Below, in pieces: positions 29,553 to 39,765 of a stretch of DNA of 40,364 bases (positions are counted from its first letter, which is position 1; the number at the start of each line of letters is the position of its first letter). Origin of the DNA: Octopus sinensis. Lineage: Eukaryota. The translations under genes were made by a program, and so were the position numbers. The notes under the pieces were generated by a model. That model did not search any database. It was not told the origin of the DNA and saw nothing but the letters and a program-made list of their open reading frames with translations. The stretch spans positions 1 to 40,364 of the forward strand of contig NW_021835404.1 of the NCBI RefSeq assembly GCF_006345805.1, read 5' to 3'.

Positions 29553-29574
29553 AGCAATATTATATTATTATTAT

Positions 29575-32500
29575 TTTTTCCTTCTTTCTTCAAATTTTCT
29601 TCCGTTTCTCGCCGAGTGTTTTCCATACACCTAGGGAAGAGAAGCTCATTGTATGCATTCCCAGATTACACACGCAAATTCACAGATAAAATATGTATTT
29701 AAAAATTAATAAATAAATAAATTCATGGATGGATGTTATTTTCAAAGCGATAGTGCTCTTCTCAGTACATGAGCCGTTCCAGTTAATACGATTTTTTGCA
29801 CTTCCTTGTAGGGATGGTGAGCCTGGAATCATTTTCAAATAGGTTTCAGTACCTTTTTTTATCATTCCTAGAGATCCTACAATCACTGGTACTGTAGTCG
29901 CCTCGAGATGCCACATTTTTTCAGTTTCTATTAGCAGGTCTTTATATTTACTAATCTTGTCAAATTCTTTCGCCACTATATTGTGATCACAGGGAATACT
30001 CATGTCAATTAATAAACACATCCTTTTTGTCTGATCTATTATAATAATATCCGGTTTATTAGCTTTTATAGTCTTGTCGGTCCTCACGGGGAAGTCCCAT
30101 AGAATCGACACATTTTCTCCCTCAGTCACAGCTTCAGGATGATGTTTATACCATTTGTCAGCGGTTTTGATTTTATAATGCCACATATTGTCCATTGTAA
30201 ATACTGGCCGACTCTGTCATGTCTTGCTTTATATTCTGAAGGTGCTAAGACTCTACACCCTGAGATTAGGTTGTCTGTTGTTTCAGTCTCCTCGTTACAG
30301 AATCAGCATTTTGGGTCAGCTCCATTTTTCATCACATTGGCTTGGTAGTTCCGGGTTAATAAGCTTTGGTCTTGAGCAGCTAATATGAAACCTTCACTCT
30401 CTGCTTTCAGCCCTGAGCTTCGTAACCATTGGTGCGTGTGTTTCTGGTCGACATCAGCTTGTTTGCTACGGGCCACGTACTTGCCATGGAGAGGTTTCTG
30501 TTCCCATCTGTTTCCTTGCAGCTGCAGTTGGCGTATTTCCTTCAGCCTGATCAATCTGGTGTGTATCTAAGAGATCAGCAGCGAATTGTTTGCTCTCTTT
30601 GAGAATAGAGTGAAGTTTTTTCGGTCTTTCATGTTTTTCAACAAGTTTTAGCATCCAATCGTTGGTTGTTTCAAGGTATTTGGCCAGTTCGATTGTGGTG
30701 GTTTTGTACATAAGTTGAAGCTGGATCAAACCTCGACCTCCCTGAACTCTGGGAAGGTAAAGGCGATCCACGTCTGCCTTTGGATGGTGCATCTTATTAC
30801 AAGTCAGTAGCTTGCGGATTTTTCTGTCAATTTTCATTATTTCACTGGTATTCCAGTTAAGCACATTGAAGCTATATAGAACAACTGGTACTGCTAAGGA
30901 ATTTATGGCTAACACCTTATTATATGCATTCAGCTCAGACTTCAGGACTGCTCGAACTCTTCTATAACATTCCTTCCTAACCTTCTCTTTCATGCTTTCA
31001 TGCTGGATACCAGAGCCTTCATTTATTCCTAGGTATTTATAGGTTTGTTCCTGCTCAAGTTCCTTTATTACTATTTCGACATCTAATTCGATTGAACTAG
31101 ACTTTACCAATTTCCTTTTCTTAAAAGTGGCTTTGTCACACTTTTCAAGGCCAAACTCCATCCCGATATCATCACTGAATCCTTTCACAGTATGTAATAA
31201 TGCTTCAAGCTCTTCATCATCTTTGCCATATAGCTTTAAGTCATCCATATAAAATAGATGGCTTATTTTTCTGTTGTCAATTTTGTAGCCATATCCTGTT
31301 CTATTCAGTTCACTTGAGAGTGGTATAAGTGCAATGCAGAAAATTAGTGGTGAAAGTGAGTCACCTTGGAAATTTCCACAGTTTATGCTAATGTTGTTTG
31401 AGTGCAATACTCCATTAGAATGATATAATTGGAGCGTCGTGTTCCATAGTAACATATTATACTTTAAAAAATCTGATATCACAAGAGAAATTTTGAAAAT
31501 GTACAGCGATTTCAGAATCCACGAATGTGGTATGCTGTCAAATCAATCCATGAAGAGCTGAGATTTCTGCGCTTGTTATGGCAGTTCTCAAGGATCATGC
31601 GATTAGTTAAGAGCTGAACTTTGCATCCATATGAGCCTCGTCTGCATTGGGAATGAGGTTATTCTCTTCCATAAACGTATATGTTTTCTCTACTAGAATA
31701 GATGTCAAGATCTTCTAGGTAGTAGATAAACATGTTATAGGCCGGTAGTTTTGGGGGTCTTTCGTTTTGTTATTTTTGGGGAGGAGGTAAGTAATACTAT
31801 TTGCCATCCAATGTGGTGTTTTTCCGGGTCTTTCATAATACTATTAAATAGTATTACTAACATTTTGTGTGCGGACGAGAGTGATGAGAGCCAGAAATTT
31901 GGTACTCTATCAATACCAGGGGATTTCCACTTATGAGCCTTCGTTAGTGCCCTCCTTAGGTCGGCGATTGAGATGTCTTCCCATACCTGTTCTTGTAGAT
32001 TTTTGTAGTCATCTTGGGTGCGTTTGATCCACTCTGCATTTTCATTGTATGGTTTCTCATCACTCCAGATCCCTTTCCAAAAGTGTTCAACTTCTTCCAT
32101 TAGGGGTGGATTTTCAATGGTTATTTTTTTTTCCCTATTTCCCTGCAAAATGATTTAGCATTGGATTTGAACATCTTATTTTGTTTGTAGCATCTGATTC
32201 TTTTCTCAAGTCTGCGTATTCTCTGAGCTTTTGCTTGAACTTTTTGTTTAAGTGTTTCTTTCGCTGACATTAGTTCTTCTCTTGTTGAGTGTCCATATTT
32301 TCTCATAATCTTCCTGCCTTTTCTTGATCTTACATAATTTCCAGAGATTAGCTCAGTTAATATTGATATCTCCCTTCGCAATTATTCAATTTCAGTTTCA
32401 ATTCTACTCCTCCAATTTGATTTTCTCTTCGAATTTGGTATTGTTGGCTTTTTGGGTGTTAAACAGCGTCTTTCGATTACCTTAGCGACAGAGTAAATAA

Positions 32501-33440
32501 TTTCATTTAATTTATTAAGATCAGGTTTTAGTTGTATGATTTCCTGTGTAACGCAGTTGCCAATTTGTGTTTTATGTTGGTGTGCATTTGAGAGTTTATG
32601 GAATGGTTCCCTATCATTCATAGTTGTATGGCCTACAACTGCAAGCTCATTCAGAACTTCTTGCTTCATTTCAATGATAGATTTTCTGTGTTGTTCAACA
32701 AACATGAGGTCTTCAAATTCTGTTTCGACATCATTTTCCGGGCTGTTTTTTCTAGGGTCATTATATTTTCCTACTTCTTCAGGATCTTGAGTCGTTTCGG
32801 CAGATGGTCGCCTTTCAGTCAATGCTTGTGGCCCAACATTCCTCTCCTCAGCTTCGTTAATTCTTTCCTGACTTACATTTAGGTCATTCTCTACCACTTT
32901 TTTAATAGAGGTTAATTCTGCATCTGTGAGTCTGGTATTCCTGAAGATATCTCTTCTAACATTTGCTAAACTGCTTTCATCCAGGTTTGGTCTGCTAGCT
33001 GGATTCCGGCTCCTCCTTGGGCTGGTCTACTTAATGCAAATTAATAAGCATATATTACTTCTTTATATTCTTCCCAGTTCCATTTAGTTCTTTTACTTTT
33101 TTGATTTTCTGGTCGTTGTGGTGGTGAACTTTAGGGGCTTAATTTGGGACAAATCCCGTTTAAGTGACCTTCCAGGTTCGTATTCGGGGAAGATATTCAG
33201 CCATTTGAAAATTTTTCGCCATCAAGCTGGCAGCCTCCTGACGGACGCGCTTCCTTTATAACCATTGGGCAACCGATTCGGTGTACTGTTAGAAATTTTC
33301 TTTTCAAGTAAAGTTAAATTATTATTAAGTTTTCATTAAAAAAAAAACATAGATAAAATAAAATAAAAAATAAATAAAAGATTTAACCACTAATTTTCAT
33401 ATAGGGGCCTCATTTATCATCATTAGCAGCCCCAGTAGTT
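29575..33440 (-). mobile_element. Near full-length R4/Dong retrotransposon, related to 21452-25427, inactivated
   Basis: ORF pieces 32382-32897, 32121-32381, 31735-32148, 30466-31482 (QGDSLSP, YMDD), 30303-30554 and 29680-30195 (KPD..IDMSIP) are colinear with the plus-strand copy. Same 3' terminus, running into TAA repeats. Confidence 0.95.
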
Positions 33441-37815: not shown

Positions 37816-37864
37816 ATTATTATTATTATTATTATCCTTATTATTATTATTATTATTATCATTA

Positions 37865-39630
37865 TTCAGTAGTCTTATTTTTATAGCGTGCTTTCACTTC
37901 ACTACCGAGCGCAGCTCTGTGTGCCTTGGGTATGTGCTGTGATTTGTTGTGATGCTCTGATGGTTATTGTATGGAAAGTGTTCTGCGTAGGAGGTGTGCA
38001 GTGCCTAGTAGTGCAATTTCTGTATGTTATATGTGTTTGTAAGTCCTGGTGTTTTTGTTATGTATTTGTCTGAATATTTTCTTATCATGCCTAATGCACC
38101 TACTATGATAGGAATTGTTTCTGTTTTCAGATTCCACATTCTAGTTACCTCTATTTCCAGGTCTTTGTATTTTGAGAGTTTCTCCATTTCTTTTAGAGAC
38201 ACGTTGTCATCTGCCGTATTGATACATCAATTAGAAAGCATTGTTTTTCTTCATGATCTCTGACAACTATATCTGGTCTGTTGGCCTTAATTTCTCTATC
38301 CGTGTGTATCGGCATATCCCAGAGTATGGTTGCTTTCACGTTTTCTGTGACCTTTTCTGGTGTGTGCCTATACCATCTTTTTTCTGTTGTTATTCCATAA
38401 TGTTGGCATAGCTTCCAATGTATGTAGGTTCCAACTCTGTCATGTCTGTGAATATATTCCTTCTTAGCCAGGACTGGGCAGCCAGAGATAATATGATTTA
38501 TTGTTTCTTGTCCATCTCCACATATTCTGCAGTTACTTGTAATATTTCTTTTCATTACATGTTTTTGGTAATTTCTGGTGGGGAGGCTTTGGTCTTGTGC
38601 TGCAATTAAAAATCCCTCTGTTTCTGCTTTGAGTCTGAGCTTCTCAACCATTGCTGGGATTTTTCTTTGTCTATTTCTTTTGCGCTTAGTTTAGTCCAGT
38701 ATTTACCATGAAGGGGCTTTTCTTGCCATCGTTTTATCATGGTTCGTTGCTGTTCTATTTTTAGTTTGGATTTCATTTGTTTTATAGCTTTTGTTGTTTC
38801 TTCATCTTCTTCTTCTTCTTCTTGTTTATTAGGTGGTATGATTTCTTGTTTGTATTTGTCAGCTTCCTTAAATACTGAGAACAGTTTTTTTGTTTTGCTC
38901 GTGTTTTGCCGCTATCTGGATCAGTTTTCCTTCCTTCTGAAGTAGATATTTTTGCAGTCCTATGGTGGTTATTTTATAGTAGTTTTCCAGCTGTATAAGG
39001 CCTCTACCACCTTCTATACGTTGTATATATAGTCTTTCTATGTCAGATTTTGGGTGATGCATCCTAGATCCTGTCATTATTTTTCTTGTTTTCCTATCTA
39101 TTTTGGTCAGTTCATTTCGTGTCCAGTTAAGGATATTGTAGCTGTAACTATAACTGGGACAGCTAAAGTGTTGATACCTATTATCTTGTTTTTAGCATTG
39201 AGCTCTGTGTTTAGTATTGATCTAACTCGTCTATAATATTCTTTTTTTATTTTCTCTTTCATTTGTGTGTGTTGTGTCTTATCTAGTTCATGGATTCCTA
39301 AGTATTTGTAAGTTTGGCTTTGGTCTAATTCTTTTATTTCATTGGTTTTATCTAGTGTGATGTTGTTACTCTTAACTAGTTTTCCGCTTTTCAGGGTTAC
39401 TTTGGCGCATTTTTCTAATCCAAATTTCATATCTATTTTTTTGGTAAATCCATGAACTGTCTTTAATAGTGTTTCCAGCTGTTTGTCATTTGGCCTTTCT
39501 TCTTTCTGTGGCTGTCTTCAGTTAGGCTTTATTAATCATTAGTTGATCTTTACAGCCATATGAGCCTTTGCGGCATCCTTTCTGCTCTTCTGGGAACAGT
39601 TTGTTTTCGTGCAGGTGCTTGTCCAGTGCT
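37865..39630 (-). mobile_element. 5'-truncated, internally deleted R4/Dong element (fourth lineage)
   Basis: EQKGCRKGSYGCKDQL joined at ~39490 directly to NDKQLETLL..MKFGLEKC (RT core missing), then MHHPK, CRICG..HIISGC, RHD and RPD..IDVSI; flanked by (TAA)n. Confidence 0.92.
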
Positions 39631-39765
39631 TATTATTATTATTATTATTATTATTATTATTATTATTATTATTATTATTATTATTATTATTATTATTATT
39701 ATTATTATTATAATTATTTTATTATTATTATCATCATCATCATCATCATCATCATTATTATATTA
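39630..39765. repeat. (TAT)n/(CAT)n microsatellite
   Basis: Directly visible; similar tracts at 34620-34890, 35443-35787, 36338-36697 and 37815-37865. Confidence 0.95.

Follow-up and report, generated by a model that had tools for sequence, protein, structure and literature searches.

Co-oriented (TAA)n-specific retroelements stacked in a microsatellite beside a gene of Octopus sinensis, likely by repeated insertion

Among retrotransposons without long terminal repeats (non-LTR elements), R4 and the other endonuclease-bearing clades are mostly target-specific (PMC4640811), and the Dong elements of Bombyx, Anopheles and Biomphalaria target TAA microsatellites (PMC3812793, citing Kojima and Fujiwara 2004; Xiong and Eickbush 1993). 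Dong-R4 elements are annotated as abundant and recently active in octopuses and are abundant in cephalopods (PMC13282606, PMC8967140), and in Octopus vulgaris 1129 of their insertions were recently active (PMC13282606). No paper on the stacking of Dong elements in cephalopod TAA tracts was found within the limited literature searched. The stack described here comes from Octopus sinensis. The stretch of DNA analysed, referred to as the window, is an entire unplaced contig (NW_021835404.1, label C11875; 40364 bp, 36% G+C) of the 2.72-Gb genome, and contains two copies of a gene, one of which has its 3′ flank split by an interval of 10.2 kb. This interval is a pile of five co-oriented (TAA)n-specific non-LTR copies, seated in a microsatellite which follows the stop codon at a distance of 59 nt, and it has likely grown by repeated target-primed insertion. 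In what follows, C1 denotes a chromosome-scale contig of the same genome and L-numbers are the labels of the genomic loci compared.

The closest described systems are Dong of Bombyx mori, DongAg of Anopheles gambiae and DongBg of Biomphalaria glabrata, which share with the octopus elements a reverse transcriptase (RT) followed by a CCHC motif and a restriction-like endonuclease, as well as insertion of fixed polarity into (TAA)n. The octopus elements differ from these in that at least four lineages use one target, and in that their full-length form carries a 5′ untranslated region (UTR) of 0.7-1.1 kb with variable repeats. Another family of site-specific elements is represented by TRAS and SART of Bombyx, non-LTR retrotransposons which target the (TTAGG)n telomeric repeat and encode an APE-type endonuclease. 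The present elements are like TRAS and SART in being site-specific, in lying in one orientation and in having their own target repeat as spacer; however, the target of TRAS and SART is telomeric, whereas the present elements use a TAA microsatellite that is interstitial and next to a gene. A further parallel is found in L1-driven insertion into A-rich tails and in microsatellites born from such tails (PMC3812793), where likewise the tail of an insert becomes the next target or seed and clusters grow. The L1 bias is nevertheless loose, being toward an A/T-rich nick site, while the trinucleotide and strand specificity seen here is near absolute in the sample.

Both gene copies lie on the minus strand of the window, copy 1 with its stop codon at 7431-7433 and copy 2 with its stop codon at 39826-39828. 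The 3′ flank of copy 1 is uninterrupted through a short ATT/ACT tract (7303-7332), a claim of the first-pass annotation of this DNA that was verified by direct reading of the 30-bp tract, and that annotation was also right in placing the matching flanks of copy 2 about 10.2 kb apart. In self-BLAST, the proximal part of the copy 1 flank (7327-7775) matches 39756-40188 at 81% over 449 bp (E 1e-121), and the distal part (7259-7314) matches 29508-29563 at 80.4% over 56 bp (E 4e-7), with more colinear matches on the same strand farther to the left (298-755 with 26571-26989, and 2665-3458 with 28124-28894). The edge of the tract at 39766 leaves 59 nt between tract and stop codon of copy 2, close to the 60 bp first estimated. 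By itself, the distal match to copy 1 is short, and it could be taken for a dispersed repeat or for the relic of a deleted third paralogue, in which case the interval would not be inserted in one flank. The paralogue L008 (C1:41.45 Mb) speaks strongly to the contrary. Its alignments cover 28033-29552 of the window (93.6% identity, 1547 bp) and 39767-40364 (90.1%, 598 bp), and its two matched flanks end ~35 bp apart with a tract of 28 bp between them. Because L008 joins both flanks across ~35 bp, the distal match is a genuine flank and not a dispersed repeat. Colinear homology also reaches the tract over 678 bp at 98.5% in two further paralogues, L091 and L092, and continues into the proximal flank beyond, and a genome search located the distal piece only beside members of this gene family. 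A stray repeat or paralogue relic is accordingly so improbable that it can be set aside, and the sequences on the 29552 and 39767 sides are a single split 3′ flank of copy 2. The use of a paralogue as an empty-site control likewise holds, L008 being a better control than copy 1. A segment of 0.8 kb in the downstream regions of the two copies (2665-3458 and 28124-28894) is 95% identical between them, as against ~80% in the surrounding flanks; this segment, which also falls within the L008 flank alignment, could be a repeat of younger age or the product of local gene conversion.

All five elements of the interval (Table 1) are of minus-strand sense, with their 3′ ends at the left, and on the sense strand (TAA)n stands before and (AAT)n after each of the five. 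The tracts total 1212 of 10214 bp, compared with 28-30 bp at empty sites. Near-identical copies of element C (96-99%) are present elsewhere in the genome. The first-pass annotation had described the contents as a full-length Dong, a repeat P, two 550-bp elements and two truncated Dongs separated by tracts, with the Dongs and P all pointing the same way. The shared direction and the inventory stand, except that P is not a separate repeat. Among 27 sampled genomic copies of P (1.5-kb flanks), 24 are followed on the same strand by the 5′ part of a Dong open reading frame (ORF), and in about 19 of the 27 the 5′ end of P adjoins (AAT)n, as read by eye in the printed flanks. The window itself contains a further example, a structurally full-length Dong-like copy on the plus strand (19935-25426) that belongs to another subfamily (74.9% to element A over 3.9 kb) and has its own (AAT)n tract. 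Its order is (AAT)n, P, a low-complexity stretch, the ORF and (TAA)n, with P placed as in A. Since the Dong ORF follows on the same strand in 24 of 27 copies, P is the 5′ UTR of a full-length Dong-like element, and the stack consists of five elements instead of six. In this full-length form the 5′ UTR of 0.7-1.1 kb has variable internal tandem repeats, which are met in many genomic copies; that of the plus-strand copy shows an internal tandem duplication (20092-20565 and 20562-21017). The term full-length is justified for A by its structure, but its reading frame is interrupted by stops and frame changes.

Table 1. Features of the stack and of the 3′ flanks of the two gene copies, in window coordinates (TRF, Tandem Repeats Finder)
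Feature	Position	Strand	Basis
Left-edge remnant of the microsatellite with the A-run and TAA tail of the element A 3′ end, 27 bp	29553..29579	.	Sequence; edge motif common to empty sites
Element A, structurally full-length Dong/R4-like non-LTR element	29580..34620	-	RVT_1, CCHC/endonuclease motifs, TAA tracts at both ends
Parts of element A: broken ORF region 29580-33330; (GCA/GTA)n low-complexity stretch 33424-33866; 5′ UTR 'P' 33867-34620			
TTA/TCA tract, 270 bp	34621..34890	.	TRF
S1, 554-bp non-autonomous (TAA)n-specific element (putative)	34891..35444	-	Genome copies, flanking ATT repeats
TTA/TCA tract, 343 bp	35445..35787	.	TRF
S2, another copy of S, lacking 6 nt at the 5′ end relative to S1	35788..36332	-	98.5% to S1
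ATT/GTT/ATC tract, 365 bp	36333..36697	.	TRF
B, 5′-truncated Dong-like element, another lineage	36698..37814	-	Endonuclease domain with stops, zf-RVT match, TAA at both ends
TAT/TTA tract, 70 bp	37815..37884	.	TRF
C, 5′-truncated Dong-like element, third lineage	37885..39629	-	C-terminal part of the RT plus endonuclease domain, 51-65% amino acid identity, three frames; zf-RVT
TTA tract with (TCA)8 block, adjoining the gene, 137 bp	39630..39766	.	TRF; (ATC)8 ATTATTATATTAT right end also in L091/L092
Copy 1 unsplit 3′ flank, including the 30-bp ATT/ACT tract 7303-7332	7259..7430	-	Sequence reading, self-BLAST, paralogue comparison
Copy 2 stop and final 178 codons, continuing past the window end	39826..40362	-	ORF list; alignment to the C-terminus of homologue P0123
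Proximal 59 nt of the copy 2 3′ flank, containing ATTAAA 39806-39811	39767..39825	-	Sequence reading, paralogue comparison
Distal portion of the copy 2 split 3′ flank	28033..29552	-	Colinear with L008; 98.4-98.5% to L091/L092; copy 1 match

The Dong-like elements of the window display the traits of the Dong/R4 group, namely a non-LTR RT, a CCHC motif with a restriction-like endonuclease, and insertion into (TAA)n in one polarity, the latter in all five elements of the stack and in the plus-strand copy. Both element A and the plus-strand copy match Pfam RVT_1, with E 9e-16 for the former and E 2e-15 for the latter. The motif CX2CX8HX4C and, after it, (K/R)PDI..D..K..KY were read by eye in the translations and are kept in A, B, C and the plus-strand copy; the combination of CX2CX8HX4C with KPDI...D...K...KY in A is what we take to be the pattern of a restriction-like endonuclease. 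No APE domain was matched in Pfam among the ORF pieces of the window that were scanned. Of the solved proteins, those nearest to the RT piece come from R2 retrotransposons (E 7e-12), a match that places the RT only among endonuclease-bearing, early-branching elements; a sequence search of the PDB with the endonuclease piece found no match. At E<=0.001 the RT has 1432 homologues; PF00078 is found in nearly all of the best 120 of these, which carry almost no names, so that the RT cannot be named by its homologues. The same C-terminal domain is found in B and C, at 49% and 54-59% amino acid identity to the plus-strand copy, and is interrupted by stops or frameshifts in both. Altogether, at least four diverged Dong-like lineages occupy one target, with 49-79% amino acid identity in the C-terminal pieces compared. 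In Bombyx Dong, a hepatitis delta virus (HDV)-like ribozyme at the 5′ end cuts the co-transcript at the junction between TAA and element (PMC3774820). None was detected in the octopus elements: Rfam yielded no ribozyme across 19500-40364 at E<=1, and RNAalifold, run on 23 of the 24 collected 5′ ends, gave no HDV-like nested fold, both the Rfam search and RNAalifold being blind to pseudoknots.

S1 and S2 belong to a family of short elements, S, with at least 3078 first-look candidates in the genome. Scoring of 40 candidates gave 43 matches, mostly full-length at 97-100% identity, the exceptions being one full copy at 92% and one fragment of 48 bp; 5′-truncated copies are present in the genome as well. 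ATT repeats stand beside the central S copy on the left at 26/26 and on the right at 24/26 independent loci, in one polarity throughout. S would seem to be a non-autonomous rider on a TAA-specific enzyme. In this respect it is similar to the R2 SIDEs (PMC3414825), short internally deleted non-autonomous derivatives of R2, which are also short non-coding riders on a target site. R2 SIDEs keep the ends of their parent, whereas the ends of S do not resemble those of the four Dong-like elements of the window (A, B, C and the plus-strand copy). An origin of S as a short interspersed element transcribed by RNA polymerase III, with a head derived from tRNA, 5S or 7SL RNA, was rejected: no tRNA was found, and 34891-36332 has no Rfam match other than chance matches of CrcZ on the tracts. 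S1 and S2 share 98.5% identity, which does not exceed the identity of either to unrelated copies. Because they share just two non-majority variants and have different 5′ junctions, sequence comparison makes two insertions somewhat more likely than one tandem duplication. Elsewhere, S often occurs in tandem arrays, triple arrays among them. At loci L021-L047 the tract on the 3′ side of S often comprises 5-6 repeats followed by unique DNA, and that on the 5′ side is usually long. This asymmetry hints either at insertion of S close to one end of a tract or at the addition of tract sequence where the 5′ end joins it.

The pattern seen in the window is repeated across the genome. A survey of S loci found another TAA-specific element within 1.5 kb of S at 22 of 26 independent loci, and 41 of 43 neighbours co-oriented with S. 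Such stacks are the rule in this genome, and the site beside copy 2 is not special. As the two strands of a TAA repeat are asymmetric, co-orientation is to be expected wherever these elements insert and is not specific to this locus.

The same 3′ flank is found in other states beside other members of the gene family. Genome matches to the copy 1 flank, 22 in number, reduce to 16 distinct sites, 5 with a short tract, 2 with a pure tract of ~200 bp and 9 filled. The short-tract sites (28 to about 65 bp) are copy 1, L014, L015, L016 and L017, the last two being almost the same and perhaps a single locus that entered the assembly twice. The pure tracts are found at L091 (C1:213.37 Mb) and L092 (C1:205.02 Mb), where ~200 bp of (ATT)n contains no element. 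The flanks of L091 and L092 match those of copy 2 at 98.4-98.5% over 678 bp on the distal side (28900-29575) and at 97-97.7% over ~300 bp on the proximal side, and their tract ends in the same (ATC)8 ATTATTATATTAT as the right-most tract of copy 2. The filled sites are copy 2, L011, L012, L013, L088, L089, L090, L093 and L094. L012 has a single truncated Dong of 2.7 kb, L013 has that Dong together with C-type fragments, and L011 is as L013 with the addition of a B-type element. At L088, L089, L090, L093 and L094, TAA-specific elements lie distal to the proximal flank; the search for the distal flank covered 10 kb and did not find it. Across the 8 filled sites other than copy 2, element matches are in the orientation of the gene in 27/27 cases. 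One Dong family shows three truncation points (2647 bp, 2286 bp in L090 and 1152 bp in L089), with one truncation point common to L011, L012 and L013. Since truncation points differ and the fill of copy 2 is of a different lineage, the site was hit several times independently.

The possibility that the 10.2 kb are a false join across microsatellites, with the pure-tract copies on the chromosome as the real state, deserves consideration given that the window is a whole unplaced contig, that flanks of the copy 2 type are found on chromosome-scale C1 without a stack, and that the interval holds five tracts of 70-365 bp. The left junction, however, spans only a 27-bp tract, and like stacks occur at the 8 other filled paralogous sites and at most of the sampled S loci. 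The same stack is also present in two other unplaced contigs, C10461 and C10834, at 98.9% identity; the order of elements is identical in all three contigs, with small gaps as between separate copies. Thus a false join is very unlikely. C10461 and C10834 duplicate most of the window at 98-99%, and could represent haplotigs or else segmental duplicates, of very recent origin, within the tandem cluster. To the left of window position 17490, the identity of C10834 falls to 90-97%, and a filled neighbour copy is found where the window has the empty copy 1.

How such a stack could have grown is suggested by the known biology of Dong. The endonuclease would nick the TTA strand, and reverse transcription would be primed on the (UAA)n tail of the RNA, by which the orientation would be fixed. 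Tract would be left on both sides of each insert, so that targets multiply, and S would be mobilised in trans by a Dong-type enzyme. Beside copy 2, a short tract may first have expanded to about 200 bp and then been filled, the passage from 28 bp to ~200 bp to a filled site being the simplest series, although not a proven one. Recombination between tracts would probably also shuffle or delete blocks. The idea of a self-reinforcing landing pad, put forward in the first-pass annotation, is supported in that it follows from the published TAA specificity of Dong, and it agrees with the presence of TAA on both sides of every element and with the empty and intermediate paralogues; what it has to give up is growth by insertion only. 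Expansion of tracts and recombination between them appear to act as well, because pure tracts of ~200 bp exist and because a block made up of S2, tract and B recurs elsewhere.

That block (35612-37817) is found again at C1:205034362-205036594, at 91% identity and beside the 3′ part of C in a different order. It thereby gives some credit to an alternative in which all or much of the stack did not grow at the site but owes its presence or its arrangement to unequal crossing-over, gene conversion or segmental duplication between long TAA tracts of the tandem gene cluster, with the pure tracts as collapse products. Such an origin would also account for the truncated Dong common to L011, L012 and L013 and for the gene cluster being a mosaic of pieces 83-99% identical, and the direct TAA tracts, 1.2 kb in all, make a good substrate for exchange. 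The private divergence of A is in addition not below the flank divergence to the empty L091 and L092; across 1804 compared columns A has 44 private substitutions (2.4%), a figure which, resting on nine relatives of which two are distant, is an upper bound. On the other hand, S1 and S2 differ at their 5′ ends and are no more similar to each other than to unrelated copies, truncation points differ between paralogues, and the left tract of copy 2, at just 27 bp, offers poor homology for exchange. Moreover, recombination can move elements but cannot create them. Assembly of the stack by exchange in place of insertion is therefore regarded as a doubtful, though reasonable, alternative, and growth by insertion and reshuffling by recombination are probably both at work.

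Several points nonetheless weigh against growth by repeated insertion at this site. No insertion was seen occurring, and the order of events is a reconstruction. Element A may be older than the split between copy 2 and L091/L092 (1.5-3% total flank divergence), in which case these two loci would have lost the stack and would not be its precursors. The recurrence of the S2-tract-B block shows that blocks also move as units, and the Dong of L011, L012 and L013 was inherited by duplication, so that the series of states in part reflects inheritance. S has no terminal sequence in common with the four Dong-like elements of the window, and no partner for it was found. Finally, the placement in the R4 clade is a provisional one that draws on domains, motifs and target.

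The locus is part of a clean natural series, in which site-specific retroelements turn a trivial microsatellite into kilobases and the empty, expanded and filled states coexist in one genome. Much of the load of Dong-R4 and of unclassified short elements in octopus genomes may be organised around TAA tracts, which matters for repeat annotation, for assembly across tracts and for structural variation in tandem gene clusters. A more speculative proposal, held here only tentatively, is that several diverged Dong lineages and the undescribed 554-bp rider, with its thousands of young copies, form a community locked to (TAA)n in one polarity, whose tracts expand, fill and collapse fast enough for one paralogous flank to show every stage, and whose same-direction stacks may be expressed by read-through from the upstream gene. 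The case involves no new mechanism; it is tidy but ordinary, and what it offers locally is the series of paralogous sites together with S, the abundant TAA-specific rider.

Retroelement sequence had been thought necessary to supply the 3′ UTR or poly(A) site of copy 2. This is not supported: between the stop codon and the tract there is an ATTAAA at +15 (39806-39811), and the frame of copy 2 looks broken. An AATAAA is found at +103, inside the tract, and the first such hexamer of L008 at +339, poly(A)-type hexamers being common in AT-rich DNA. Among the sequencing runs listed as carrying the region none is on record as RNA, and four sequencing runs compared with 39400-40364 gave just short contigs that end at the tract, none bridging it, and are usable neither for nor against. 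Read in the twin contig and compared with the intact homologue P0123, copy 2 falls into three pieces in frames -1, -3 and -1, an arrangement that assembly errors could mimic; it may be a pseudogene. The same comparison reveals in copy 1 an in-frame stop together with a change of frame, and an empty paralogue, L087, covers residues 456-736 only.

The gene belongs to a family of multi-pass membrane proteins of ~740 residues, for which an exhaustive protein search found 84 relatives of ~730-850 residues; a word-indexed protein search with the 253-residue ORF found nothing in its length range. The UniRef label of P0123 is a STRA6-type retinol receptor of Octopus bimaculoides. The profile of the STRA6/retinol-binding-protein receptor was not matched: P0123 and six relatives gave no Pfam family with E<=0.001 as cut-off, nor did the ORFs of the window with E<=0.01, and the Atlas gave no usable match for the gene. 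The family is tandemly amplified and apparently intronless, with members at 7431-9400 and 39826-40362 of the window (both minus strand) and at ~204.9-205.07 and 213.37-213.39 Mb of C1, and several of its copies look like pseudogenes or fragments.

Other repeats are also found in the window. An (ATATA)n array of 700 bp (25652-26353) lies just past the 3′ tail of the plus-strand Dong-like element, and sub-threshold Rfam matches to miRNA families in its palindromic part (26489-26553) are chance matches to AT/GT repeats. Long (GGTA)n tracts occur at 6968-7258, 1150-1407, 13315-13500 and 16787-17120; one of them lies immediately next to copy 1's distal flank, a place that in copy 2 is taken by a GA-rich and (AT)n stretch.

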